DNA of 64,000 nucleotides. It comes from Planctomycetota bacterium. GTDB taxonomy: Bacteria; Planctomycetota; Brocadiia; JAADGH01. How positions within the stretch are numbered: the first letter of the stretch is position 1; every line of letters starts with the position of its first letter. Under the pieces are notes generated by a model. It made no database searches. It was not told where the DNA came from and worked only from the letters and a program-made list of their open reading frames with translations. Location of the stretch: assembly GCA_013152475.1 (NCBI GenBank), contig JAADGH010000213.1, positions 2,271 to 66,270 of the forward strand, read 5' to 3'. The position numbers were made by a program, and so were the translations under genes. Below, in pieces: positions 1 to 13,859 of this stretch.

Positions 1-54
1 ACCGGAATCTCTCGTGCCTGTTCGGTTATTGTCTTCACTTGGATAGCTCCTGTT

Positions 55-1332
55 CTATGCGCTCTTCACGTGAGCGAGTTCCTGGTAGAGACCCGTCCCC
101 GGCGTGCATTGCGGCCCGCAGTTGCAGAAATAGCGCTCCGGCTTCATACCGAGCTCCGGTCCGAATTTTTCCCACATCTGCACCGACTCCAGGCAGAGCG
201 ACACGGGGATGTCCGGGTTCGCCGCGCGAACCTCGTCGATGAGGAAGCGATAGATCTCCGCGCGGGCGTCGTGCGGGAGCGGGCCGAATTTCTTGCCCTG
301 CATCTCAACGGCGGCCGCTTCCGCGGCTTCGAGCATCTTCGGGTCCATCAGCGAGAGGTCCATCGCCCGCTTCATCTGGTAGACATCCATCCACCCGAAG
401 ACGCACAACGTAATGACGTCCGGCGTGACCCTCTCAAGCAGCAGCTTGACCATGTCGCGGTTTTCCTCGCGCCAGTTCTTTACGGGGAAGACCGGACTGA
501 ATCGAACACGGACGATATAGCCCCTCTCCTGGCACTTGCGCAGCGCCTCAATCCGCTGCTCGGTCGCTGCTGCACCCTTCTCGATCTGCGTGCTCTGGGT
601 CTTGGCCGTGATGCTGAAGGCAACGATGGTTTTGCCCCGGTGATCGAAGTCCAACAGGAAGTCGATGTCGGCGCACTTGCCCAGGTAGAGCAGCAGGTAT
701 TTATCGGGCTTCCGGGCAAAGTAATCGATCAGCAGCTTCGTCCCGCCATACTCCGGCTCGAAGCAGGGCGCGTCGGTGGCGTTGTCCCACTTGAAGAGCG
801 TCTGTTCGGGACAGGCATCCACCCAGTCGTCCATGCGCTCCATCAACTCCTCAAGGTTCAGCATGATCACCATCACATCACCCAGGTGCGCGCAGTAGGA
901 GCACTGGAACGGGCACCCGGCGATGGTGTGGATCTCATGCGCCGGCTGGCACACGCGAACGCCGCTGCCGGCCTTGAACTCCTTCGGCGCGCCGCGGTAG
1001 TCCCAGCCGATGTATCCGGCGAGCTTGCCGCTTGGAAAATCGCCAAGCTTCAGGGCCGGGAATTTTTCGTACCGTGCATCCTGCTCTTGTTTGGTGTGCC
1101 ACTTCATCGTGTTGAAGACGATGGGTGGATCGGCGTAAGGGCGAATTTCGCCCTTCAGTCGCGTCTTGTGCCAGCCGTTGGCCAGACAGAGGCGGCTCAG
1201 CTCGGCATCGTCCACCTTCACCACATCATCCCGCCCCAGGGCCTTGAGCATTCGGTTCATCCGCTCGACACATCGCGGGTCGTCGAACACCTCTTCCGTC
1301 GCGTAGATCGCGCTCGGGTTCATCGGATACAT
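55..1332 (-). CDS. radical SAM protein, SPL/COG1533 (DNA-photolyase-like) family, downstream paralog
   Basis: ORF 55..1602 trimmed to the ATG at 1332 (MYPMNPS...), with GGGGAG 6 nt upstream. Has the CxxxCxxC motif GCPFQCSYCAH. Alignable by eye over most of its length with ORF 1344..2606. Confidence 0.8.
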   Translation of the reverse strand: MYPMNPSAIYATEEVFDDPRCVERMNRMLKALGRDDVVKVDDAELSRLCLANGWHKTRLKGEIRPYADPPIVFNTMKWHTKQEQDARYEKFPALKLGDFPSGKLAGYIGWDYRGAPKEFKAGSGVRVCQPAHEIHTIAGCPFQCSYCAHLGDVMVIMLNLEELMERMDDWVDACPEQTLFKWDNATDAPCFEPEYGGTKLLIDYFARKPDKYLLLYLGKCADIDFLLDFDHRGKTIVAFSITAKTQSTQIEKGAAATEQRIEALRKCQERGYIVRVRFSPVFPVKNWREENRDMVKLLLERVTPDVITLCVFGWMDVYQMKRAMDLSLMDPKMLEAAEAAAVEMQGKKFGPLPHDARAEIYRFLIDEVRAANPDIPVSLCLESVQMWEKFGPELGMKPERYFCNCGPQCTPGTGLYQELAHVKSA

Positions 1333-1343
1333 GATAGACTCCC

Positions 1344-2606
1344 CTATGCCGATTTTTTCTTGGGAACGCTCTTCTGCCCGCAGCAGCAATACAGATTGTC
1401 CGGCGACATCTCCAGATGGTCCGCCAGCATGTCCCACATCGCCCGCTCCTCCGTGCACAGGTTGACGGGTGTGCCGGGGGCAATGCGCTTGATCTCGTCG
1501 ATGTAGTGGGCATATATCTCGGCCCGGACATGGCGCGGGAAGGGCCCGCTGTGCTTGCCGTCCATGTCGGTGGCGTGCTTGCGCATTTCGTCGAGACACC
1601 ACGGGTCGAGATTCTCGGCGCCGAAGATCTGCTCCGCCTCATCGGCCAGCATCATGGCCACCACCCATAGACGGACGGTATCCACATCCGCCGCGGCGAA
1701 CAGCTTCTCCAGCGCAATCGTCGCCTCCTCGCGCCAGTTTTTGTGCGGAACAATCGGCGAAAATCCGGCGCGGACCACATACCCCGCCTCCTGGCACTTG
1801 CGCATGGCCTCCAGGCGCTCGTCGAGGTTGGGGGTGCCGCGCTCGATGGTCTGGGTCTGGGTGTCGGTCGCGACGGTCCAGTAGCACGGCATGTGCTCCT
1901 TGTAGGGCAGGTCGAGCAGGTGGTCGATGTTGTTGCTCTTGGTGTAGACGAGCAGGTATCGGTCGTTCTTCGCAAAGCACTCGCCTAACAGTTCTGACGC
2001 GCCGTACTCCGGCTCAAAGCAGGGGTAGTCGCTGGTCAGGTCGTAGCGGTAGAGCTTCTGTTCGGGGCGCTCTTTGAAGTTCCGTTCGAGCTCTTTGGCG
2101 AACTCCTCCAGGTCGAGCATGAAATTGATGGCATAGCCCATCTGACAGTAGTCGCAGCGGTGGGCGCAGCCGTTGATGGTGTGGATGCTCCACCCGCCCT
2201 GGCAGACGTAGGGCCGCTTCGGGTCGCTGCCGTCGCAGTGGTCGCGCCTGCCGTAGATGCTTGCCGGTCCCTTGCCCGCCAAAGAGTGGGCGATCATGCT
2301 CGCGCGGGGGTTCTTGTACTTCTTCGCCATCGGCTTGATTTTGTCGGGATCCCATACATACGTATTGAAGATGAACAGCGGATCCTGGTCGCGCTTTTCG
2401 ATACCCATCCGAACACGACTGGACTGCACCGGCAGGTCGTCTGAAGCGCCGGCGGCCTCGACCACCATCTCCGTGTCGGTCTCGTCGATTTCCTCGATGG
2501 GCGGGTTCTTCAGACCTTTCATCATTCGTTCGAGTCGCGCGACGGCCTTCGGGTTCTCGTATACCCTTTTGTGAACAAACACTCGCGGCGGGTTCAGGTC
2601 ATACAT
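1344..2606 (-). CDS. radical SAM protein, SPL/COG1533 (DNA-photolyase-like) family, upstream paralog
   Basis: ORF 1344..2657 trimmed to the ATG at 2606 (MYDLNPPRVF...). Has the CxxxCxxC motif GCAHRCDYCQM. The start overlaps the iclR stop by 8 nt (ATGTATGA). Shares blocks with 55..1332, e.g. RKCQE.GY.VR..FSP..P.KNWREE. Confidence 0.8.
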   Translation of the reverse strand: MYDLNPPRVFVHKRVYENPKAVARLERMMKGLKNPPIEEIDETDTEMVVEAAGASDDLPVQSSRVRMGIEKRDQDPLFIFNTYVWDPDKIKPMAKKYKNPRASMIAHSLAGKGPASIYGRRDHCDGSDPKRPYVCQGGWSIHTINGCAHRCDYCQMGYAINFMLDLEEFAKELERNFKERPEQKLYRYDLTSDYPCFEPEYGASELLGECFAKNDRYLLVYTKSNNIDHLLDLPYKEHMPCYWTVATDTQTQTIERGTPNLDERLEAMRKCQEAGYVVRAGFSPIVPHKNWREEATIALEKLFAAADVDTVRLWVVAMMLADEAEQIFGAENLDPWCLDEMRKHATDMDGKHSGPFPRHVRAEIYAHYIDEIKRIAPGTPVNLCTEERAMWDMLADHLEMSPDNLYCCCGQKSVPKKKSA

Positions 2607-3420
2607 TGCTCTCTTCCTTCTGCTCTGACACGGGAATCTCCGGCTCAACATAACCAAGGTCTGTCGATATCTTATTCGCGGTTTCTTTCACCGCCCCTAC
2701 GACGACGTCATGTTCCGATTTTTTGAAGCGAACCCCGGGCATGCCCAGCCCGACCGACGCGACCACCTCGCCGGTGAAGTCGCGGATCGGCGCGGCAATG
2801 GCGAGCACCGTGTTGTTCTCCCGCCAGTATTCCAGGTACCCATCGCGGCGGGCCTGGGCCAAAATCCGATCGAGATCTTCGCGGGAGTGCACATCCTCAC
2901 TCTTGGCGTCTTCGATGGGGTGCACCGCGAGGTATCGCTCCAGCATGTGATCGGGAAGATGCGCCAGCAACACACGGCCACAGACACTCGTGAATCCCGT
3001 GCGAACTAACGAGCGCTCGAAGTTGACCGTGAGCATCTGGTTGCCAGCCGCACGCGCCACGAACAGAATTTCCCCGCCTTCGATCATCGCCACGATAACG
3101 GATTCGTTCAGCCGCTGGGCAAGTTCTTCGATGTGGGGGCGGGCAATTTCGGGGACGCGGAGCGTGCGGCGGTAGGCCCGGCCAAGAGACGCGCAGTTGA
3201 ACCCCAGCCGGTAGCGCTGGCTGGTCGCATCCTTCGCAACGTACCCCTTGGCGACGAGCGTTCGCAGCAGGTTGTGCGCGGTCGGCACTTTCAGGTCCAC
3301 GGCCTTCGCGAGCTCGGTGACGCCAAGCCCCCGCTCCGAGCGCCCGAGCACCTTGAGGATGTCGAGGGCCCGAACAACCGACTGAACAAGGCCGTTTCCG
3401 TTAGCTTTTATATTCAACAT
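2599..3420 (-). CDS. IclR family transcriptional regulator
   Basis: N-terminal wHTH (SVVRALDILKVLGRSERGLGVTELAKAVDLKVPTAHNLLRTLV) followed by an IclR-type effector domain of about 270 aa, the typical length. Confidence 0.9.
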   Translation of the reverse strand: MLNIKANGNGLVQSVVRALDILKVLGRSERGLGVTELAKAVDLKVPTAHNLLRTLVAKGYVAKDATSQRYRLGFNCASLGRAYRRTLRVPEIARPHIEELAQRLNESVIVAMIEGGEILFVARAAGNQMLTVNFERSLVRTGFTSVCGRVLLAHLPDHMLERYLAVHPIEDAKSEDVHSREDLDRILAQARRDGYLEYWRENNTVLAIAAPIRDFTGEVVASVGLGMPGVRFKKSEHDVVVGAVKETANKISTDLGYVEPEIPVSEQKEESNV

Positions 3421-3441
3421 AGTTGAATCCTTTCTCGTATT

Positions 3442-3469
3442 ATTGTATCCTCATTTCCCAGGGTGTCAA
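3442..3469 (-). promoter_or_regulatory. putative sigma70-type promoter of the iclR-rSAM-rSAM operon
   Basis: Minus strand reads TTGACA-N16-TACAAT, about 20 nt upstream of the AAAGGA RBS and the iclR ATG at 3420. Confidence 0.45.
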
Positions 3470-3610
3470 GTAATAGCGGGATTTTTCAGATGAAATTATC
3501 CATAATTGCCTTTTTTCACAGAAGTTAGGATCGGGGAAAATTTTGGAAAAGCCAGACAGGTGACAGACAGGAAGTGCGCACAATCCGTGGCGGGAGCGAT
3601 ATTGGTGGGC

Positions 3611-4093
3611 CTAACCCTGCTTCAGATCGACGGTGCGGATGAGGACCTGCGCTGCCTCGCCGGTGTCGGAGTAGTAGTTTTCGCGGATGTGGTCGAGGGT
3701 AAAGCGGAATCTCTTGTAAAAGTCCTGCGCCCCCACATTGCTGGGGCGGACCTCGAGATACACGGCCTCGATGCCGGCGGTCTTGGCTTGGTCGAAAAGG
3801 AACTCCATGAGGCGGGCGCCAATGCCGCGCCGTCGGAACTGTTTCGCAACTGCGATTTTCTGGAGATGGACCTGACCCAGATGCAGCCGGTACAGGATAT
3901 AGCCGACGACGCGCCCTTCCGCCTCCGCTACATAGCCCCTGTGGTCCGACAGGAGCAACCGCGAGGCGAACGTCCGCCGCCGCCACGGTGTCGGGAACGA
4001 TGCCGACTCGATGGCATGCACCGCGCCCACATCCAAGAGGGACATCTTTCGGATGTTTATTGAAATGGATTGTTCAGCGGCCGCAGCCGACAT
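3611..4093 (-). CDS. rimI: GNAT N-acetyltransferase, RimI-like (ribosomal-protein-alanine acetyltransferase)
   Basis: ORF 3611..4222 trimmed to MSAAAAEQ, 11 nt after the nth stop. Has the acetyl-CoA motif QFRRRGIGARLMEFL and an overall RimI-like layout. Confidence 0.75.
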   Translation of the reverse strand: MSAAAAEQSISINIRKMSLLDVGAVHAIESASFPTPWRRRTFASRLLLSDHRGYVAEAEGRVVGYILYRLHLGQVHLQKIAVAKQFRRRGIGARLMEFLFDQAKTAGIEAVYLEVRPSNVGAQDFYKRFRFTLDHIRENYYSDTGEAAQVLIRTVDLKQG

Positions 4094-4104
4094 GTCCTTC
4101 TCCG

Positions 4105-4755
4105 CTACTTTTTCTCGCGCTTCGGGCAGATCGCCTCGACCGGGCACTCGTCGTGCATCGGCTTCCGCGCCGAGCAGATACGCCGCCCGTGCCAGATCAG
4201 CAGATGTCCCGCCATGATCCACCGCGACGTTGGAAAGACCTCCATCAGGTCTTTCTCCATCTTCTCCGGGTATTTCGTCTCATCGGACAGGCCCATGCGA
4301 TAGCTAAGGCGGAAGACGTGGGTATCGACCACCATCCCCGTCGCCTTGCCGAAGGCCGTGCCGAGGACCACGTTCGCCGTCTTGCGCGCCACGCCGGGGA
4401 GGGTCAGCAGCTCGTCCATGGTTTGCGGCACCACGCCGCCGAAGTTCTCGCAGATCGCCTTGCTTGCGCCGAGGATGCTCTTGGTCTTGTTGCGGTAGAA
4501 CCCAGTGCTCTTGATTTCTTTCTCCAGGGTCGCGGGGCGGAGTTTCGCAAAGTCCGCCGGGGTCCTGTATTTTTTGAACAGGTCCACCGTCACGATATTC
4601 ACCCGCTCATCGGTGCACTGGGCCGAGAGGATCGTGGCGATGAGGAGCTCGAAGGCGTTCTTGTGGTGCAGCGCGCACTTGCAGTCGGGGTACGTCTTTT
4701 TCAGGATATTGAAAATCTTCCGCGCGCGCTTCTTCTTGTCGGCAAGCGATTCCAT
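4105..4755 (-). CDS. nth: endonuclease III (HhH-GPD DNA glycosylase/AP lyase)
   Basis: Has the HhH motif LLTLPGVARKTANVVLG, the VDTHVFR block and a C-terminal FeS-cluster loop (see the finding on its His substitution). Confidence 0.92.
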   Translation of the reverse strand: MESLADKKKRARKIFNILKKTYPDCKCALHHKNAFELLIATILSAQCTDERVNIVTVDLFKKYRTPADFAKLRPATLEKEIKSTGFYRNKTKSILGASKAICENFGGVVPQTMDELLTLPGVARKTANVVLGTAFGKATGMVVDTHVFRLSYRMGLSDETKYPEKMEKDLMEVFPTSRWIMAGHLLIWHGRRICSARKPMHDECPVEAICPKREKK

Positions 4756-5009
4756 TCGATTCTCCGTTTGAGGGGCGTCAACGCCATATCGCCCTTCTAT
4801 GTTACATCAGCCGCGCGAATTTGTCGATAGGGAAACCGCGAAGAGAATGATGAATGTAGAAACCGCGGTTGCTCGCGATCGTCTTTCTTGATCGGAGAAT
4901 CCGGTGGCAACGAAGTGGGATGCGATACGGCCAAGCCAGCCACGATCACGCAACTGACCGCAAAGACGCCGCCACAAACGGCACACGCGGTCTACTGCGA
5001 ATACCGCCC

Positions 5010-5204
5010 TCAGCCAAGCTTTCCGTCGATCTCTCCGTCGCCGAAGAAATCGACCCAGGCGTCTTCGTCCTCGCCAAGCGACGCTACGTCACCGTCGCAG
5101 TTTGGGGCGACACAGTAGCCCTCGTTCTCCAGCAGGGCGACGAGGGCCTCCTCCGTACCATATATAGTCCCGCACTTTGGGCATTTGAGCGGGCTGGCAG
5201 ACAT
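5010..5204 (-). CDS. small Cys-knuckle (zinc-ribbon-like) protein with acidic C-terminus
   Basis: 64-aa ORF with a GGGGAA RBS 5 nt before the ATG. Has CPKC ... CVAPNC cysteine pairs and a D/E-rich tail. Confidence 0.5.
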   Translation of the reverse strand: MSASPLKCPKCGTIYGTEEALVALLENEGYCVAPNCDGDVASLGEDEDAWVDFFGDGEIDGKLG

Positions 5205-5556
5205 GACCGTTCCCCGTGTATCAAAACCTATAAACTAATAACTTTCCTATTATACCACATATCTTGGCCGAATGAGGAGAAAAAATCCTACCCGCGCCGT
5301 TTTTGGCCACGAGTCTACGCGGCGATCTGGCATTTTCTGTTGTTTTGGTGTTCCAGTAGGTGTCCCAGTGTTGTGAGAGGAAGAAATCTGAATCCGTGAG
5401 AACCGAGCGGGAATGCGGTCGTGTGATTGGCATAACCCATTGGAAAATGGTAAGATACGGGCATTAAACATATCCGATCTACCCTAACCCAACAGGTGAA
5501 TGCCATGGGCTACATTCTAAGCGCTTTAACCAAAGTGAGTTGTGATTTTCTCTGGG

Positions 5557-5614
5557 TATAATGTGCGTTGCGTTCAACCTCCACCATGATACCGACCCTT
5601 TGGTTGGGTGGAGG
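5557..5614 (+). promoter_or_regulatory. perfect TATAAT box followed by an 8-bp GC-rich hairpin that includes the Shine-Dalgarno of the downstream HTH ORF
   Basis: TATAAT at 5557-5562. CCTCCACC (5578-5585) pairs with GGTGGAGG (5607-5614). GGAGGAG lies 8-10 nt before the ATG at 5625. Confidence 0.35.
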
Positions 5615-5624
5615 AGATCTGCCC

Positions 5625-5835
5625 ATGCCCGGTTGCACCAAACTTCGCCCTGCGTCCGAAGCCGAACGGGCCGAGCTGGAACGTCTCGTTCGGAGCAATC
5701 CCGATGCGCGGGTCCTTCGTCGAGCTCAGATTGTCCGACTACGGCTTCTGGGCCACAAGCACGGGGAGATCGCCGAACTGCTCGGGCACTCGATGCCGTT
5801 GGCGGCAGTCCCTCCTTTTCCAGCGAGAGAAATGA
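5625..5835 (+). pseudogene. IS630-family-like transposase N-terminal HTH fragment (relic, no DDE domain)
   Basis: The translation LRPASEAERAELERLVRSNPDARVLRRAQIVRLRLLGHKHGEIAELLG resembles IS630/Tc1-type transposase N-termini. The reading frame decays after about 75 aa. A possible frameshifted continuation (..TRCRWRQ..) is seen in another frame. No catalytic domain follows. Confidence 0.4.
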
Positions 5836-5889
5836 CATGCACCCGACCGATCGCTCTTGGAATTAGACACCATCGAAGACGATTTTTCC

Positions 5890-5918
5890 TTGACACGCTA
5901 TGGCTCTTGTTTTACTTT
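5890..5918 (+). promoter_or_regulatory. putative promoter of the 6000-20853 operon
   Basis: TTGACA (5890-5895)-N17-TACTTT (5913-5918), about 80 nt upstream of the ATG at 6000. Confidence 0.3.
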
Positions 5919-5999
5919 ATGTAGCTCTTGCGGAGGGGGCGCGATTGGATCAGTCACAAGAGGGCGGAGGGAAATCACAGCTTCAAGCATAAGGATAGC

Positions 6000-7970
6000 A
6001 TGGGAGAGATTGACTTCCGAAAGCAGACCGGCGGAGGTGTTACGTTCCGCGCAGTCGTTCTTGGCCTCCTCTTGGTGTCCTTCCTCTCGGCCATTGTTCC
6101 TTACAGCGACTATTACCTTCACAACACACCGCTTACGGGCAACCATTTTCCTATCGGCGTCGTCTTTCTCTTTCTTTTTCTCTGTCTCGGCGTAAATACG
6201 GTTGTGCGCAACTTCTTCCGCGGCGCCGAGCTCTCCTCCGGCGAGCTGCTGACGGTGTGGTGCATGATGCTTGTCTCGGCGGGGCTTGCCTCCACGGGGC
6301 TGGCGCGGTATTTCTTTGCCATGCTCATCGGGCCGTTCTATTACGCCACGCCCCAGAACCGCTGGGCCGAGACGATCCACCGGCATATTCCAAAGGCCCT
6401 GTGCCCCTCTCAGGACCCGATCAGTCCGGTGATCTCCTATTTCTTCGAGGGCATGCCGCCCGACGCGACCATTCCGTGGTCGGCATGGCAGCGGCCGCTG
6501 ATCCTGTGGGGCATCCTGATCCTTATGCTCTACGGCCTCATGTTCTGCCTCTGCGCGATCCTCCGCAAGCAATGGGCCGAGCGCGAGCGGCTCAACTTCC
6601 CCCTGATCCAACTGCCCGTCGAGATGGCCGCCCCACCCGAACCCGGGTCGCTCATCAATTCCTTCTTCAAGAGCAAGGCCATGTGGATCGGGTTCATCAT
6701 CCCCGTGTTCCTCTATTTTCTGTCCGGGATGCACCGACTGTACTGGGGGCGATACTGGCCGCAGCCGCGCCTCTTTATCTGGCTGTGGAGCTTCTTCAAC
6801 TCCGAGCCTTGGCGCCACATGCGCCTCATGCGGCTGGGCATCTATCCGTCGATCATCGGGTTCACGTATCTCCTCACGCTTGAGGTGTCGCTCAGTTTCT
6901 GGTTCTTCTACTTCTTTATGCGCATGGAATACCTCCTCTGCGCCGTGCTCTGGCAGCCGATCTGGGGCGACTATTCCTCCCGTGCCATCCATCAGCAGGC
7001 CGGCGCGTTTCTCATGATGGCGGTCCTCCTGCTGTGGCGGGCCAGATCGCATCTCAGGGACGTGGTGGGCAAGGCCTTCAACAGCGATTACCCCGTGGAC
7101 GACTCGGAGGAGCCCCTATCCTACCGGACGGCCTTTTTCGGGCTGATCGGCCTGACCATCGGCGTGTGCGTGTGGTGCTCATACCTGGCGAACATGTCGG
7201 TCTTCTTCACCCTTGTGGCGCTTATTCTCCTTCTGACGATCCTCATGGTGCTTACTCGAGTGGTCGCGCAGGGCGGGCTGATCTTCGTCTCGCAGAATTT
7301 CCAGCCCTATGACATTATGACCACCACCTTCGGCTCGGCTACCATTGGCCCATCGACGCTGACGATTCTGGCCATTCAGAACATCGTCTTCATCCACGAC
7401 TCCCGCGAGGTCATGATGCCCAATATCATGAACTCTTTCAAGATCGGTGACAACCCCCGCATCAACCAGCGCGTCCTCTGCGCCGCCCTCTTCCTCAGCG
7501 TCATCGTCGGCATGATTGTGGCGGGGTATTTCTACCTCAAGTTGATGTACACCTACGGCGCGTCGAACCTCCAGCGGTGGGACCTGCGCCGGATATTCCT
7601 CTGGCGCTTCAACTCCCTGGTCTGGCGGATCCGAAGGCCGCGCTTCACCAACTGGCTGCTGCTGCGCTGGATGGGCTATGGCGCGGTGCTGATGGCCGGG
7701 TTATATTATATGAGCACACGGTTCTACTGGTGGCCGTTCCATCCGCTGGGTTTGCTCATGGCGAACACCTACCCGATGGAATGCTTCTGGTTTTCCATCT
7801 TTGTGGGGTGGTTCCTGAAGTCCTCGATCCTGAAGTATGGCGGGGGGCGGACCTATAAGAACATGCGCCCCTTCTTTCTCGGGTTGATCCTGGGGGAGGC
7901 GTTTATTGCGGGCTTCTGGGCCGCTTACGGGTTCCACGTGGGGCGCTGGTTGGTCAGAGTGTTGCCATAG
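6000..7970 (+). CDS. large polytopic inner-membrane protein, uncharacterised family
   Basis: ORF 5928..7970 trimmed to MGEIDFRK (AAGGA RBS). Has many hydrophobic helices throughout and no soluble domain. Confidence 0.8.
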   Translation: MGEIDFRKQTGGGVTFRAVVLGLLLVSFLSAIVPYSDYYLHNTPLTGNHFPIGVVFLFLFLCLGVNTVVRNFFRGAELSSGELLTVWCMMLVSAGLASTGLARYFFAMLIGPFYYATPQNRWAETIHRHIPKALCPSQDPISPVISYFFEGMPPDATIPWSAWQRPLILWGILILMLYGLMFCLCAILRKQWAERERLNFPLIQLPVEMAAPPEPGSLINSFFKSKAMWIGFIIPVFLYFLSGMHRLYWGRYWPQPRLFIWLWSFFNSEPWRHMRLMRLGIYPSIIGFTYLLTLEVSLSFWFFYFFMRMEYLLCAVLWQPIWGDYSSRAIHQQAGAFLMMAVLLLWRARSHLRDVVGKAFNSDYPVDDSEEPLSYRTAFFGLIGLTIGVCVWCSYLANMSVFFTLVALILLLTILMVLTRVVAQGGLIFVSQNFQPYDIMTTTFGSATIGPSTLTILAIQNIVFIHDSREVMMPNIMNSFKIGDNPRINQRVLCAALFLSVIVGMIVAGYFYLKLMYTYGASNLQRWDLRRIFLWRFNSLVWRIRRPRFTNWLLLRWMGYGAVLMAGLYYMSTRFYWWPFHPLGLLMANTYPMECFWFSIFVGWFLKSSILKYGGGRTYKNMRPFFLGLILGEAFIAGFWAAYGFHVGRWLVRVLP

Positions 7971-7991: not shown

Positions 7992-10900
7992 ATGCGTAAC
8001 GTCCGGATTGCATGTCACATCCTCCTGCTCCTTGCCCTCCCTGCTGCGGGGGCCTCCGCGCAGGGCGCAGGGGACGACATCGGCAGCCGCGCGGCGCTCA
8101 AGCGCACCATCGAATACCTCTCTTCCATCAACAGCCGCGTCACCGGCTATGCCGGCTGCGACGAGGCGGCTGCGTATGTGGAGATGCGCTTCCGCGAGTT
8201 GGGCCTCAGCAATATTGCGAGCGAGGAGTTCAAGCTGGCTGTGCCCGTGGACAGGGGGGCGCTCTTGACCGTCGGGAAGGGAAAAAACGCCAAAGAAATC
8301 CTCATCCACAGCCTGTGGCCCAACATGGTTCGCACCTCCAAGCTCCCGCCCACGGGGATCACGGGCTGCCTTATATACGGCCGCGGGGGCTACATGCTGG
8401 ACTTCAATGGGAAGGATGTCAAGGACAGCATCGTCTTGATGGAATTCAGCTCATCCACTCGCTGGCTGAACGCCGCACAGTTGGGCGCAAAGGCGATCAT
8501 CTTTATCGAACCACCTGGGGATATTCTGTTCCGCACCGATGCGGAGGAAAAATTCTTCGAGATTCCACTGCCCATGCCCCGCTTTTGGATCGCAAAGGCC
8601 GATCTCGCGGCGCTCGTGAAGGCGTTGGGCGTGAAGGCCCCACCGGTCGAGAACCGCCGCAAGCTCGAAATCAGCTTGCGCGAGGTCTTGTCCAAGAAGC
8701 GGCACTCCGTTCGGATCAAGGCCGACATGGCCTGGGAGATGCGCACGGCGCGCAACATCATCGCCACCATTCCCGGCACCGACCGCGAGCTTCGCAAGGA
8801 TACGATTATCCTCGAGGCCTACTATGATTCCATCTCGATCGTCCCCGGCCTGGCGCCGGGCGCTGAATCGACCTGTGGCCTGGCGATGATGCTCGAGCTG
8901 GCGCGATGGGCCGTCAAGCACCCCCCCCGGCGAACCCTCAAATTCGTTGCGGCGCCGGGGCATTTCGAGGCCCTGGCGGGCATCCGAGAGTATTCGAAGA
9001 AGCACTACTACACCCGGTACGAGCCGGAAGAGTCCTCAGAGCAGGAGGCCCGCGAAGAAGAAAAGGCCGAGCTGGAACAGGCCGAGCGCGAGGGGGTGCG
9101 AAAGCCCGGCCACCTCATGATCTCCCTCGATCTGTCCAGCGGGGAGAACCAGCTGGCTCTTTTCTACAAAGGGCATTTCTACGACCAATGGGCCGCTTGG
9201 GGCGAAGGACAGGAGGGGCGGCACCAGCGCCAGTTCATCCGCCTCGCCGAGCGAATCATGACGTACTACGAGGACCTCGACTCCGCCGAGTTTGACTCCA
9301 CACTCCTCAACGGCGTCGTGCCGAAACGGGATCGAGACTGGCAATCGATGGTCCCAGGCAAGATTGCCCTCGACAGCGAGGTGGTATGTCTCGCAGGCCG
9401 GCAGGCCGTGGCGTTTGTTACGGCCAACGACTCCCGGAGTTATGTAGACACGCCGCTGGATGTCGTCGCGAAGGTTCGATTTGACAATCTCGAGGCCCAG
9501 GCGAAGCTCTTGATCGCCCTGTTTGGGAAGATCTTCAACGACCCGGAGCTCCCGCTCACCGATAAACTGCACCAGGGATGGGTGGGCGACTCCTTCGGCA
9601 AGGTGCGCGAGGACCTCCTGCTGGCATACCTTCCCGAGACGGCCATCCCCGGCGCCGTCGTCGGCGTCCTGCTCACCAACGAAACGAAACCGCTGTTCGG
9701 CGTCCGGCCGCGGGCCTACACCATCAGCGAGTCGCATGGATTGTTCGAGTTCTTCGGCCTGGACCGGAACGCGCGGCCCTACTGGCGGAATGTTGTGGCC
9801 TTCAAACTGGACCCCAAGGACGGCAGCATCTCGTGGGCCTTGAAGCCGCGAAGCGAAAACCGTCAGTTCGGCCTGCATCCGATCTGGTGGCGGAGGCGGA
9901 ATAAGGACTGGACGAAACGGGCCATCGACATCCGCCTGCCCGTGTTTCAGTGCACCTCATGGGTGATCTACGACCTGATCGACCAACTGGACCTGCAAAG
10001 CCTGGGGAAGCTGACGGTGCTGGACGCGAGCACAAACGCGAAGCCGCGCAAGGCCGTCTACTTCCTGGGGGAGGTGGGGGAGGGCACGTCCTTTTCCGAA
10101 CCGTGCGCCGTGGTATTTACCGAGCCGGACACGCACATCAAGCTGACCATGGAGCCGCGCGGCCGTGGCATCCAGCAACAGCGCCTTACCCTCCTGAATG
10201 TTCCCCCCGGCATCGTGACGGTCGTCAATGTGCGGACCAACAAGGAACTGGCCATATTTCCGGGGCACAAGGGCGAGGTGGACGCGGTGGCCTTCGCCCC
10301 CGACGGGGTGACTGTCGCGTCGGGCGGCGAGTCGGGGCTCTGCCGCATATGGCCCCTGGCCGTTCACAAGGAGGGGGAGACCGTGAAGGGGGAGGTGCTT
10401 CGGGGACATACGGCCCGGATCAACGACCTGGATTTTTCGCCCGACGGCCGATTCCTGGTGTCGGCGTCGGACGATCACACGTGCCGCGTCTGGGACTGGA
10501 AACGCAAGGAAGAGATCGGGCGGTTCGAGCAGCACGGGGCGCCGGTGCTGTCTGCTCGGTTCTCCCCGGACGGGCGGCGCGTGGTTTCGGGCAGCGCCGA
10601 CGGGAAGGTGTGGATCTGGCCGATTCGCCCTGACAAGAAGGCCAAGATCGAACCGAAGAGCGTTCTCCTTGCCGGGCACACAGGCGGGGTGAACGCGGTC
10701 GCGTTTTCTCCGGACGGAACGCGGGTGGTTACCGGTTCCGACGACATGACGTGTCGCGTCTGGGACGCGGCCACCGCAAAGGTCCTTTGTACGTTTGCGG
10801 GGCACCGCGGCGCGGTGAACGCCGTCGCGTTCTCGCCGGATGGGAAGCGTGTGGCGTCAGGGTCGGACGATACCACATGCCGCGTCTGGAACGCAGAGAA

Positions 10901-13859
10901 CGGGACCGGGCAACTGGTCCTTGAGGGGCACACGGGCGACATCCTGACCCTTCTCTTTTCGCGGGACGGGAAGGAAGTCGTCACGGCAGCAGATGACGGG
11001 ACCAGCCGCCGGTTCGACGCCGCTACGGGCAAGGAAATCCAGCGGCAGGACGTACGGGCCTGGGACGTGGCGCGGCTGGGCTTGCGAAAGGGGGACCCGA
11101 TCCTTGCCATGATGGACCCCTCTCGGCGCAAAGAGAGCCAGGAGGGCGTCGGTTTCGCGCCGGTACCCGGCAAGTCCGAGAATTTTATCTACAACACCTC
11201 ATACCGCGTGGCCCGGGATATGTGGGGGCTGGATGCCTTCCGGATCGAGAAGCTGCGCGAGACGGGCATCGCAAACAAGCGTGTGGATGAGCTGCACTCC
11301 CTGGCCGGGCGGTGTCTCCACAAGGCGAAGAAGCATTGGCGACAAAGGAACTACGACAAATTCCTCGATGCGGTCCGATCGTCCTGGGCCTTCGAGTCGG
11401 GGGCCTACCCCCATGTCCACCGGACGGCGAATGACGTGCTCATCGGGATTATGTTCTACTTCGCCGTGCTTATGCCCTTTGTTTTCTTCTGTGAGCGGCT
11501 GCTCATCGCCGCCGCCGACATCCGCCGACAGCTCATGTGGCTGGGGATCATCTTTCTGATCGTCTACCTCATCCTGTATGGGGTGCATCCGGCCCTCCGG
11601 CTGTCGAGCACGCCGATTATCATTATCGACGGGTTCTTCATGATCGCCTTGGGTCTGCTGGTGATCTTCTATATCCTGAACAAGTTTAATCAACAGATGG
11701 AAGACGCCCGGGCCAAGTCCACGTTTGTCCACCGGACCGATGTGGCCCGGGGCTCTGCGGCGGCGGCAGCCTTTCTGCTGGGCATCTCGAACATGCGGAA
11801 GCGAAAGGTCCGCACGGCCCTGACGTGCATTACCTTGATCTTGCTCACGTTTTCGCTTCTTTCGCTCGCGTCCTTCGAGACCGAGCTGCGCTCCTACAAG
11901 GTGGCCACAAAGTACAACAAACCCTACGAGGGAGTGCTCCTTCGGCGGCTCAACTGGGCGCCCATCGAGGAGCACGCCTATTATACACTTTTGGAACACT
12001 TCCGCGACGCCGGCGGGCTGTGCTGCCTTCGGTCGTGGATTTCTCCGGAACGGGGCCAGAACCTTGCTCTGGATGTGACCAACGTGGAGAACCCGCGGTG
12101 GGGGGCCTATGCGGCCAGGGGCGTTCTGGGGCTGGATCCGCGCGAGCCAGAACTGACCGGGCTGGACAGACACCATCTCAAAGGCGCACGATGGTTTACC
12201 GGGAAAGAGGAACGGTATCCCTTCGTCTGCCTGCTGCCAAAACATATGGCTGAGGAAATCGGAATCGAACTGAAGCCGAACCAGCCGCCGCCGCAGGTGC
12301 GACTGCTTGGCAACGACCTGGATGTGATCGGAATCTTCGACGACTCCATCGGCATGCTCGACCACATTCGTCTCGAACACTTTCGCAAGCCTCCTGAAGG
12401 CGAGGATTTGGACGCCTGCAAGAAGGGCGAGTGGTATGTCTGCCCGTACTGTGGGGAGCAGTTCGCCTCCAAGACAGGTTTCTACGGCACCACGGACCTT
12501 GACAGCGAGCCGCTCACACCGGTGGACTTTGCAGAGATGCAGGAGCGTCACGAGGAAGAGGAGTCTCTGGACCTGCAGGAGGAGGACGAGAGCGGGACCA
12601 AGAGCACGAAGAGCGAGCTGCTGCCGGACCCCGATGACTACTACCACCAGGATCCGGGCAACGTGGTGATCGTGCCCAACGACCTCGCCATCAAGATGGG
12701 CGCGACGATTCGCTCGATCGGTGTGAAGCTGCAGGGCCGGAAGGTAAAGCAGATCGTCGAGAAGTTCACGCAGCGGACGAATCTGCTGCTCTTCACCGGT
12801 GTCCCCGTTTCGCCGGAGGAGGAGGCGCGGGGGTCGAAGGGCGTTTACCTCTACCGGTCGAGAGGGCAGCTCTCGGTGAAGGGCATTGCGAACCTGCTTG
12901 TGCCGATGGCGATTGCCGGCCTGATCGTCTTCAACACCATGCTTGGCTCGGTGTATGAGCGAATGAAGGAGATCAGCATCTACGCCTCGGTGGGTCTGGC
13001 GCCTATGCACATCTCCGCCCTCTTTCTCGCGGAGTCGACGGTGTATGCCATCATCGGCGCTGTGGTGGGGTATCTGATCGGGCAGATTGGGGCGCGGTTC
13101 CTCACGCTGAATTTCCCGAACATCGGGCTGAACCTGAACTATTCCTCGACGGCCGCGGTCTGGGCCACGATGATGGTGATCGGGATCGTCATTCTGTCCA
13201 CGGCCTATCCGGCGCGCAAGGCGGCGCAATTGTCCGTGCCCGATGAGACGCGGAAGATGAAGCTGCCGAAGCCGGAAGGGGACATATGGAAATTCGTGTT
13301 CCCCTTCACCGTCAGGCACACGGAGACGATTGCCGTGAGCATGTTCCTCCACGACTACTTCACCTCCCACGACGAGGACGCACTGGAGGGGTTCACTGCG
13401 GACGAAGTGGGTCTGGCCGAGAAGGAAGCGGGGGACAGGACGGTGTACATCCTGACGAGCAAGGTATGGGTGCAGCCGCTTGACATGGGCATCAGCCAGT
13501 GGGTGAAGATCACGACCTTCCCCGATCCCACCGATGAACAGCTTTACCTGATGGAGTTCGAAATCCACCGAGAGAGCGGCGAGGTGGAGGCATGGGGGCG
13601 GATGAACGTGGGGTTCTTGCGGTTGGTGCGGAAGCAGCTCCTCATCTGGCGGCTGGTCGAGTCCGACTACAAGAAACGGCTCGACATGCGCGGACGCGCC
13701 GTTCTGGCCGGAGAGCCCGTGCCCCCGCCGTATGAGGATGAGCCGGAGGCCGAGGAGACCGAAACGGCCTCGGAATCCGCGCAGGGGGGAGAGGATGGCG
13801 ACGACGAGGCGCTCGATCCCGAAGAGTTCAGGAGTGAAGGAAGCGGAACGACTACGTGA
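7992..13859 (+). CDS. 1955-aa fusion protein: signal peptide, degenerate PA/M28 peptidase-like domain, WD40 propeller, 3 TM helices and an FtsX/MacB-type permease with a large extracytoplasmic loop and acidic tail
   Basis: AAGGAAGGG RBS. Signal peptide ILLLLALPAAGASAQG. M28-like block LEAYYDSISIVPGLAPGAESTCGLAMMLELAR. At least six WD40 units (GH..FSPDG....DD.TCRVWD). FtsX TM1 RKRKVRTALTCITLILLTFSLL. FtsX C-terminal helices LVPMAIAGLIVFNTMLGSVYERMKEISIYASVGL...AYPARKAA. Confidence 0.9.
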   Translation: MRNVRIACHILLLLALPAAGASAQGAGDDIGSRAALKRTIEYLSSINSRVTGYAGCDEAAAYVEMRFRELGLSNIASEEFKLAVPVDRGALLTVGKGKNAKEILIHSLWPNMVRTSKLPPTGITGCLIYGRGGYMLDFNGKDVKDSIVLMEFSSSTRWLNAAQLGAKAIIFIEPPGDILFRTDAEEKFFEIPLPMPRFWIAKADLAALVKALGVKAPPVENRRKLEISLREVLSKKRHSVRIKADMAWEMRTARNIIATIPGTDRELRKDTIILEAYYDSISIVPGLAPGAESTCGLAMMLELARWAVKHPPRRTLKFVAAPGHFEALAGIREYSKKHYYTRYEPEESSEQEAREEEKAELEQAEREGVRKPGHLMISLDLSSGENQLALFYKGHFYDQWAAWGEGQEGRHQRQFIRLAERIMTYYEDLDSAEFDSTLLNGVVPKRDRDWQSMVPGKIALDSEVVCLAGRQAVAFVTANDSRSYVDTPLDVVAKVRFDNLEAQAKLLIALFGKIFNDPELPLTDKLHQGWVGDSFGKVREDLLLAYLPETAIPGAVVGVLLTNETKPLFGVRPRAYTISESHGLFEFFGLDRNARPYWRNVVAFKLDPKDGSISWALKPRSENRQFGLHPIWWRRRNKDWTKRAIDIRLPVFQCTSWVIYDLIDQLDLQSLGKLTVLDASTNAKPRKAVYFLGEVGEGTSFSEPCAVVFTEPDTHIKLTMEPRGRGIQQQRLTLLNVPPGIVTVVNVRTNKELAIFPGHKGEVDAVAFAPDGVTVASGGESGLCRIWPLAVHKEGETVKGEVLRGHTARINDLDFSPDGRFLVSASDDHTCRVWDWKRKEEIGRFEQHGAPVLSARFSPDGRRVVSGSADGKVWIWPIRPDKKAKIEPKSVLLAGHTGGVNAVAFSPDGTRVVTGSDDMTCRVWDAATAKVLCTFAGHRGAVNAVAFSPDGKRVASGSDDTTCRVWNAENGTGQLVLEGHTGDILTLLFSRDGKEVVTAADDGTSRRFDAATGKEIQRQDVRAWDVARLGLRKGDPILAMMDPSRRKESQEGVGFAPVPGKSENFIYNTSYRVARDMWGLDAFRIEKLRETGIANKRVDELHSLAGRCLHKAKKHWRQRNYDKFLDAVRSSWAFESGAYPHVHRTANDVLIGIMFYFAVLMPFVFFCERLLIAAADIRRQLMWLGIIFLIVYLILYGVHPALRLSSTPIIIIDGFFMIALGLLVIFYILNKFNQQMEDARAKSTFVHRTDVARGSAAAAAFLLGISNMRKRKVRTALTCITLILLTFSLLSLASFETELRSYKVATKYNKPYEGVLLRRLNWAPIEEHAYYTLLEHFRDAGGLCCLRSWISPERGQNLALDVTNVENPRWGAYAARGVLGLDPREPELTGLDRHHLKGARWFTGKEERYPFVCLLPKHMAEEIGIELKPNQPPPQVRLLGNDLDVIGIFDDSIGMLDHIRLEHFRKPPEGEDLDACKKGEWYVCPYCGEQFASKTGFYGTTDLDSEPLTPVDFAEMQERHEEEESLDLQEEDESGTKSTKSELLPDPDDYYHQDPGNVVIVPNDLAIKMGATIRSIGVKLQGRKVKQIVEKFTQRTNLLLFTGVPVSPEEEARGSKGVYLYRSRGQLSVKGIANLLVPMAIAGLIVFNTMLGSVYERMKEISIYASVGLAPMHISALFLAESTVYAIIGAVVGYLIGQIGARFLTLNFPNIGLNLNYSSTAAVWATMMVIGIVILSTAYPARKAAQLSVPDETRKMKLPKPEGDIWKFVFPFTVRHTETIAVSMFLHDYFTSHDEDALEGFTADEVGLAEKEAGDRTVYILTSKVWVQPLDMGISQWVKITTFPDPTDEQLYLMEFEIHRESGEVEAWGRMNVGFLRLVRKQLLIWRLVESDYKKRLDMRGRAVLAGEPVPPPYEDEPEAEETETASESAQGGEDGDDEALDPEEFRSEGSGTTT
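10263..11024 (+). repeat. intragenic tandem ~126-nt (42-aa) WD40-coding repeats
   Basis: Six consecutive units with recurring nucleotide strings, e.g. gacga...acgtg(c/t)cgcgtctgg(g/a)ac, encoding DD.TCRVW(D/N). Confidence 0.85.

Follow-up and report, generated by a model that had tools for sequence, protein, structure and literature searches.

Introduction

Spore photoproduct lyase (SPL) is a DNA-repair enzyme of the radical S-adenosylmethionine (SAM) superfamily that is thought to use SAM catalytically, regenerating it, and it thereby offers a mechanistic analogy for a catabolic enzyme. Elsewhere in the superfamily, DesII, BtrN, AprD4 and the anaerobic sulfatase maturase anSME use SAM radical chemistry to dehydrate, deaminate or oxidise sugar carbons without oxygen; these carry SPASM/twitch or other C-terminal domains, serve as biosynthetic enzymes or maturases and, in the case of BtrN and anSME, hold auxiliary clusters as electron acceptors. 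Here we analyze a 64,000-nucleotide stretch of the genome of a Planctomycetota bacterium (hereafter the window), at the start of which a gene for an IclR-family regulator leads an operon of radical SAM paralogs. These paralogs are related to SPL in fold and lie outside it in sequence; their family is described by no paper or curated model and is new within the SPL-like branch of radical SAM enzymes. We propose, at a probability of roughly 60%, that the family comprises cytoplasmic, self-sufficient radical enzymes that act on sugars or small glycan-derived molecules in oxygen-independent carbohydrate catabolism, a proposal whose support is contextual.

Aerobes use oxygenases for steps that hydrolases cannot take, as in the P450-dependent demethylation of sugars by aerobic degraders of algal glycans. 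To our knowledge, how the hydrolase-resistant parts of glycans are broken down in anoxic sediment and gut is largely unknown. A family confined to glycan-degrading phyla, with as many as five of its genes in a tandem array (six in a single operon) and with regulation of the catabolic type, is a testable candidate for this missing chemistry.

An IclR-led operon with four radical SAM genes

The window covers positions 2271-66270 of contig C48 (JAADGH010000213.1) in a 6.5-Mb, 250-contig assembly (G000). A reading made beforehand from the letters alone (the sequence-only reading) had described three coupled genes here, iclR and two radical SAM genes (rSAM-A and rSAM-B), and had suggested that the operon may continue past nt 1. 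Open reading frame (ORF) calls, translations and the sequence itself bear out this layout, with all three genes on the minus strand, and inspection of the downstream genes confirms the continuation. That reading's two paralogs were an undercount: the operon has four (A, B, C and D), together with a flavoprotein and a DUF1847 protein, in the seven-gene order iclR, rSAM-A, rSAM-B, PF12831 flavoprotein, rSAM-C, DUF1847, rSAM-D.

3420..2599, minus strand: iclR, 273 aa, with HTH_IclR and IclR_C domains
2606..1344, minus strand: rSAM-A, 420 aa, SPL-fold radical SAM enzyme with CAHRCDYC and a C-terminal CCCG
1332..55, minus strand: rSAM-B, 425 aa, SPL-fold radical SAM enzyme with CPFQCSYC and a C-terminal CNCGPQC
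1..38, minus strand: 5' end of the gene for a PF12831 FAD-dependent oxidoreductase, 405 aa in all, running off the window
C48:1-2308 plus C83:3813-6011, outside the window: rSAM-C (442 aa), DUF1847 protein (185 aa) and rSAM-D (422 aa)

The iclR/rSAM-A and rSAM-A/rSAM-B junctions are as had been described. The iclR stop (TGA, 2601..2599) and the rSAM-A start (ATG, 2606..2604) overlap by 8 nt in the common sequence ATGTATGA, immediately upstream of which lies AAGGAAGAG; the resulting rSAM-A N-terminus lines up with family N-termini in our alignment (A1). The rSAM-A stop (TAG) is separated from the rSAM-B ATG by the 11 nt GGGAGTCTATC, and a Shine-Dalgarno-like GGGGAG therefore spans the stop codon. 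A further 16 nt, with AGGAG inside, part the rSAM-B stop from the flavoprotein start, a GTG at 38..36 that has this AGGAG 8 nt upstream. The flavoprotein matches PF12831 at full length and above its cut-off (330.3 bits, profile positions 1-416 of 416). Both CxxxCxxC motifs and both Cys-rich C-termini are present in the translations, and rSAM-A and rSAM-B are 35% identical end to end (E 2e-79).

Beyond the window, rSAM-C is cut by the end of contig C48, and the first 91 bases of C48 are exactly the final 91 bases of contig C83. Joining the two contigs yields an intact rSAM-C, 85% identical over 100% of its length to a same-genus protein (P0272), followed by a DUF1847 protein with a match of 130 bits; the order flavoprotein, C, DUF1847, D agrees with that of the sister genome. 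Synteny and the intact gene support the join without proving it.

The same genome holds 11-12 copies of the family in all. A second array, of three members, stands beside sulfatases and is split by a 91-bp overlap of contigs C172 and C21. Two further copies are single, one of them after an AraC-type regulator and the other near a 3-keto-disaccharide hydrolase and a GFO oxidoreductase. Both contig breaks (C83 end/C48 start and C172 end/C21 start) thus fall inside radical SAM paralogs with 91-base overlaps; the assembler evidently stopped at shared repeats, and the arrays are therefore under-represented in contig-level annotation. The third copy of the second array (G000:C21:645-1900) is read in two frames (query residues 1-290 and 292-413) and may be either a frameshifted pseudogene or an assembly error.

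The paralogs share a fold with SPL and lie outside it

The CX3CX2C motif and Pfam model PF04055 place the enzymes in the radical SAM superfamily, rSAM-A scoring 30.2 bits against a cut-off of 29.5 and rSAM-B 21.9 bits, under the cut-off but covered by the SPL model. In 36 diverse family sequences the invariant residues comprise C140, C144, Y146 and C147 (the CX3CX2C motif with an aromatic residue before its third Cys), D183, D187 and E192-P193-E194, the last three elements within the signature WDNxTDxxCFEPEYG, and four further cysteines, C128, C380, C403 and C405, of which C403 and C405 belong to the C-terminal CxCG motif. Family members have about 420 residues, about 100 of which form a family-specific N-terminal domain.

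Classification with hidden Markov models (HMMs) and a check of the catalytic Cys and Tyr agree with the earlier expectation that the enzymes are not bona fide SPL. Against the SPL equivalog model TIGR04070, whose cut-off is 400 bits, rSAM-A scores 51.7 and rSAM-B 78.8, the match spanning only about positions 72-254 of 338; both proteins match the Pfam SPL model PF20903 only partially, and identity to SPL is only 14-16%. In an alignment to the Geobacillus thermodenitrificans SPL structures, the hydrogen-atom donor Cys (C141 in B. subtilis, C140 in G. thermodenitrificans) falls on Asn184 in rSAM-B and on Leu in rSAM-A. At least 90% of family members have Asn at position 184; the Cys six residues downstream (C190, in PCFEPE) is not invariant. 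The relay Tyr that in SPL directly follows the third cluster Cys (Y99 in B. subtilis, Y98 in G. thermodenitrificans) belongs to 'ylq', an insertion of SPL with no counterpart here, and the residue after C147 is Ala in rSAM-B, Gln in rSAM-A and variable across alignment A1.

By contrast, the predicted fold is close to that of SPL. An AlphaFold (AF2) model of rSAM-B built from the family alignment has a mean confidence (pLDDT) of 92.6, and a Foldseek search of the Protein Data Bank (PDB) with this model returned SPL for all six top matches (E 4e-16 to 2e-14). The closest solved fold is SplB of G. thermodenitrificans (PDB 4FHC/4FHG; template-modeling (TM) scores of 0.57/0.70 for 4fhg), which suggests an SPL-type partial TIM barrel; the next fold, biotin synthase, follows ten orders of magnitude behind (E 3.5e-6). 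Shared with SPL are the CX3CX2C motif with its aromatic residue, a TSD-like motif (ATD/TSD) and core K, E, R, GY and W residues. In addition to the residue replacements, this family differs from SPL in its N-terminal domain and C-terminal CxCG, in being acidic, in its 10-17 copies per genome and sugar-gene contexts, and in occurring in non-spore-forming phyla.

Other SPL-like (COG1533) families are matched only weakly: TIGR03886 (lyase_spl_fam), Rv2578c (NF038135), PA0069 (NF033668), mobile pair protein B (TIGR04470) and DUF1848 all score 10-40 bits against cut-offs of 360-437, and the residues held in common, including Cys at 128 and 380, are those of the superfamily level. The next relatives of the family have 350-400 aa, lack the N-terminal domain and carry Gly-Glu in place of Asp-Asn at positions 183/184, and some are fused to ParB. 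In P0210, P0243 and P0244, three of the more distant SPL-like proteins, the fusion partners are ParB N-terminal and helix-turn-helix (HTH) domains.

These matches raise the question of whether the enzymes repair or modify DNA in the manner of SPL, or serve a mobile element or defence. SPL is the top match in Pfam, NCBIfam and fold space, the nearest out-group relatives carry ParB fusions, MutY, Nth and IS110 transposase genes flank the operon, and genes for AbiEi and an antitoxin lie near the arrays of the sister genome. Nonetheless, the catalytic Cys and Tyr of SPL are absent, the scores fall 5-8 times under the SPL cut-off, and a repair enzyme would not be expected as 10-17 copies per genome in tandem arrays, as an acidic protein (pI 5.6-5.8; no signal peptides) or under IclR/AraC regulation among sugar genes. 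The flanking nth and MutY genes look like separate transcription units, nth lying upstream of the operon promoter and MutY being convergent with the operon. PADLOC defence models matched neither A, B nor the flavoprotein, and the iclR product gave only weak generic HTH matches. We therefore consider a role in DNA repair, mobility or defence highly improbable.

Pfam and NCBIfam searches detected no relationship of A or B to DesII, BtrN, AprD4 or anSME, and no SPASM/twitch domain or TIGR03942 match at E <= 1. From the sequences, the four extra invariant cysteines may hold a second metal site; by analogy with BtrN and anSME, a possible role for it would be that of an electron-acceptor cluster. 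The same two libraries revealed no B12-binding domain in A or B, the only trace being a 17-residue chance match to KedN5 (13.9 bits).

An old and patchily distributed family

A profile search of 1.84 billion representative proteins returned only 256 at E < 1e-30, and full-length members with the N-terminal domain make up a few dozen clusters at 50% identity. All homologs found come from metagenomes or metagenome-assembled genomes (MAGs). They belong to Planctomycetota (including Phycisphaerae and non-anammox Brocadiia), Kiritimatiellota, Lentisphaerota/Victivallales, Armatimonadota (including Zipacnadia), Poribacteria, Hydrogenedentota and Desantisbacteria. Databases name them 'spore photoproduct lyase', 'DNA repair photolyase' or 'hypothetical'; the first two labels, carried by hundreds of metagenomic proteins, are corrected by the present analysis, and the family can be told apart by the Asn in place of the SPL Cys, by WDNxTDxxCFEPEYG and by the C-terminal CxCG.

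Across 30 relatives of this genome, the family is present in 17 copies in a same-genus genome, in 10 in a same-order genome and in 0-3 in other genomes of the class, with tandem arrays of up to five genes. Within the class the family is patchy and confined to sulfatase-rich genomes: each of the eight genomes that carry the strict family gave at least 13 sulfatase matches. The present genome, that of a marine Planctomycetota member, is itself sulfatase-rich, with about 100 sulfatase candidates.

The four paralogs of the operon are about 35-42% identical to one another. A tree of 106 sequences assigns A, B, C and D to four separate clades, all deep and well supported, each holding the sister-genome orthologs together with members from other phyla; Planctomycetota, Armatimonadota, Lentisphaerota, Kiritimatiellota, Poribacteria and Hydrogenedentota share these clades. 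We therefore reject recent tandem duplication: the tandem genes are old paralogs that have been brought together.

An exact look-up of the window's own protein returned no database record. Public sequencing runs contained just 5-8% of the words sampled, in marine and hydrothermal metagenomes.

The IclR regulator travels with the family

The iclR product is a two-domain member of its family, with 58.9 bits to PF09339 (cut-off 22) and 96.1 bits to PF01614 (cut-off 24). Catabolic IclR regulators such as PcaR/PobR, KdgR and BhcR have the same architecture, and here too the regulator is a leading gene, one that overlaps its presumed target operon. By contrast with those proteins, this regulator lies far under every equivalog cut-off (275-350): the best named equivalogs, PcaR/PobR, BhcR and KdgR, give 134.5, 130.4 and 99.5 bits against cut-offs of 284.75, 350 and 275, and it belongs to none of PcaR/PobR, BhcR, KdgR, AllR or IclR.

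Its closest relatives (60-85% identity) are those that adjoin this radical SAM family elsewhere. The same-genus ortholog is 85% identical; the same-order genome has the same arrangement, its IclR gene overlapping the first radical SAM gene by 4 nt. A Kiritimatiellae MAG encodes an IclR protein 67% identical to ours 27 nt upstream of a C-clade member, and another Planctomycetota MAG one 60% identical, 16 nt upstream of a C-clade member. Around the former lie genes for an alcohol dehydrogenase, an aldo-keto reductase, two URO-D proteins and a protein resembling glycoside hydrolase (GH) family GH2; around the latter lie GH5/35-like, creatininase-family and SASA-esterase genes. The regulator thus travels with the family across phyla. 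The pairing that had been put forward from the sequence does recur, in same-genus and same-order genomes and in these two MAGs, but it is not general: it is found in 4 of 82 loci, with the same-genus ortholog (in L093) as an additional case, and other family copies adjoin an AraC-type regulator or no regulator.

Family genes lie among carbohydrate-degradation genes

A locus search with a single protein returned only the sister genome, and the wider set was obtained with an alignment-based search, giving 82 loci (78 fetched and 4 from this genome). Recurrent neighbours are GFO_IDH_MocA oxidoreductases (14 loci), URO-D proteins (9), sulfatases (9) and RDH/QueG-like ferredoxins (6); GH140, GH2, GH123, PL11 (a polysaccharide lyase, PL, family), PcRGLX-like, ThuA and 3-keto-disaccharide hydrolase genes occur at fewer.

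The carbohydrate context is fullest in the same-genus genome, where the orthologous IclR gene heads a same-strand cluster of about 27 kb. Its first part reads IclR, A', A, DUF6259/CBM4_9, GH42-like with a carbohydrate-binding module (CBM), GH123_N, Amidohydro_2, B; it continues with a weakly GH1-like gene, the FAD-dependent oxidoreductase, C, C', DUF1847, DUF1284/GNAT and D. Two unannotated genes (318 and 377 aa) lie inside its glycoside-hydrolase block. This block has no close ortholog in the present genome, and the present operon is therefore the same-genus unit minus that block. In the same-order genome, the cluster consists of IclR, one radical SAM gene, two FAD-dependent oxidoreductase genes and five more radical SAM genes.

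Two conserved modules are prominent. In Armatimonadota (L070, L074, L078, L084 and L088), the gene order is PcRGLX-like lyase, reductive-dehalogenase (RDH)/QueG-like Fe-S protein, radical SAM family member and GH140 apiosidase-like protein, in some cases with a sulfatase after it. In Planctomycetota (L032:9524-14433 and L040:3367-8493), the radical SAM gene comes first, and genes for a GH123-like protein, a methyltransferase of the MttB family and a URO-D protein come after it. The D-clade members of both modules thus adjoin proteins whose families normally depend on corrinoids, a hint of a corrinoid or methyl-transfer theme.

The arrangement of the paralogs bears on whether A and B, or all four, form an obligate heteromer or catalyze fixed consecutive steps on one substrate, as the sequence-only reading had considered for A and B. 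Their genes are tightly coupled in translation, and all three related genomes have clades A, B, C and D together in their clusters. Yet the order of A and B is not conserved: it is IclR-A-B-FADox here (FADox, the FAD-dependent oxidoreductase), the same-order genome has IclR-B-FADox-FADox-A-..., and the same-genus genome has IclR-A'-A-[six genes]-B, its six intervening genes, GH-type ones included, separating A and B by about 11.5 kb. Moreover, 74 of the 82 loci have a single family member, a B-clade protein (P0017) stands alone at L010, and every paralog retains its own full CX3CX2C motif and all invariant residues. A fixed A/B pair thus finds little room in these data, and we judge the heteromeric or two-step arrangement improbable.

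Might the paralogs instead modify peptides or proteins, whether as enzymes for ribosomally synthesized and post-translationally modified peptides (RiPPs), as post-translational maturases or as activases of partner enzymes? RiPP clusters often contain radical SAM genes in tandem, the present clusters encode Cys-rich DUF1847 and DUF1284 proteins, sulfatases adjoin 9 of the 82 loci, and one divergent member (P0185, 1048 aa) is fused to a YcaO domain. These features are set against the absence of SPASM/twitch and RRE domains in the Pfam scan; against intergenic gaps of -8, 11 and 16 nt, too small to hold precursor peptides; and against the lack of a conserved protein partner at most loci, which have one family member. 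The genome already has a canonical anSME elsewhere (C8:1412-2494, 397.8 bits) as well as FGE-domain proteins, and the combination of an IclR/AraC regulator with neighbours of the hydrolase, oxidoreductase and lactonase types is catabolic in character. Peptide or protein modification is accordingly unlikely in our view. Sulfatase maturation we reject as the principal function, given the canonical anSME and the absence of sulfatases from most loci. The FGE-sulfatase-domain matches in the genome number 24, many of them inside very large ORFs.

A pathway for the synthesis of a cofactor, lipid or natural product, with IclR as its regulator, would accommodate the stoichiometric use of SAM that is typical of radical SAM enzymes in biosynthesis, the flavoprotein and small Cys-rich proteins alongside, and the GNAT and glycosyltransferase genes of some neighbourhoods. 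It fits poorly with the remainder of the context: core biosynthetic genes (polyketide, nonribosomal peptide, terpene or fatty-acid synthases) are absent from every cluster examined, the neighbours belong mostly to degradative families (GH, PL, sulfatase, esterase), and the family is patchy in its class, in sulfatase-rich genomes only. We hold a biosynthetic role to be as improbable as the heteromer.

A separate protein, P0339, carries an 82-position GH43 fragment ahead of its radical SAM domain. We rejected this as a true fusion; it is probably a gene remnant or an artefact of gene calling.

A proposed role in oxygen-independent carbohydrate catabolism

The sequence-only reading had favoured metabolism over DNA repair. 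Copy number, tandem arrays and carbohydrate-gene context agree with this and point more narrowly to carbohydrate catabolism, on contextual grounds. In the role we propose, IclR would probably repress the operon until a metabolite of the pathway binds it, and each paralog would probably act on a substrate or decoration of its own. Electron supply or removal, or a further step, would probably fall to the flavoprotein and the Cys-rich DUF1847 protein. As to chemistry, we speculate from the catabolic look of the pathway that the likeliest reaction is either a redox-neutral one of the lyase, isomerase or elimination type that regenerates SAM, or a dealkylation by a radical mechanism.

Several observations weigh against this proposal. 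The operon of the present genome contains no hydrolase or transporter gene, and its full extent depends on a 91-bp contig overlap inside paralogous genes. The neighbourhoods are heterogeneous, with no universal partner, and the neighbour counts are raw, carrying no background for the density of carbohydrate-active enzyme genes in glycan-rich genomes. Two fusions also point elsewhere: that of the nearest out-group relatives to ParB, by which they are DNA-associated, and that of P0185 to YcaO, which for at least this member points to a peptide or protein substrate. Finally, literature on SPL-like radical SAM enzymes, PF12831 and DUF1847/1848/1284 yielded no characterised family member and no relevant paper.

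A bolder and more doubtful form of the carbohydrate proposal, which we put forward tentatively, is that the family constitutes a new class of 'carbohydrate-active enzymes' that work by radical SAM chemistry and without oxygen, each paralog removing or rearranging a glycan feature that resists hydrolysis. Such targets could be, for example, the methyl ethers, deoxy or branched sugars or anhydro bridges of marine and plant glycans, and the enzymes might work jointly with corrinoid-type methyl-transfer proteins (URO-D, MttB, RDH/QueG-like) and with flavoproteins. If true, this would be an anaerobic counterpart of the P450-dependent demethylation of sugars.

Promoter region and flanking genes

The promoter that had been noted upstream of iclR is present, 11 of its 12 hexamer positions matching. 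Both hexamers are identical in the same-genus genome, and their flanks have diverged. About 25 nt upstream of the -35 hexamer lies a perfect palindrome.

3442..3469, minus strand: sigma-70-like promoter of the operon, TTGACA-N16-TACAAT, 11/12 matches
3494..3507, no strand: perfect 14-bp palindrome AATTATGGATAATT, 6-2-6, candidate IclR operator

The palindrome was spotted by eye, a repeat-finding program having reported no inverted repeat in the promoter region. It is unique in the window and gave 0 matches in 100 shuffles; in the sister genome it is only partly palindromic and poorly conserved. From its sequence and position it is a weak candidate for the IclR operator. A search of window positions 1..6000 found no Rfam elements or riboswitches.

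A 501-aa open frame on the plus strand (1..1506), antisense to rSAM-B and rSAM-A, was rejected as a gene, being a shadow ORF typical of GC-rich DNA. Upstream of the operon, at 3611-4755, lie nth (endonuclease III) and a GNAT gene, and the nth-iclR neighbourhood is kept in the sister genome. Past rSAM-D, a convergent thioredoxin/HEAT gene is followed by a MutY-NUDIX fusion and an IS110 transposase (G000:C83:171-3808).

The remainder of the window (6000-64000) has no gene with an obvious tie to the operon. Rough ORF calling puts the genes of this region almost wholly on the plus strand; it encodes secreted or membrane proteins of very large size (for example 7992-13859, 1955 aa) along with housekeeping-looking genes, and an apparent polysaccharide biosynthesis block lies near 44-64 kb.

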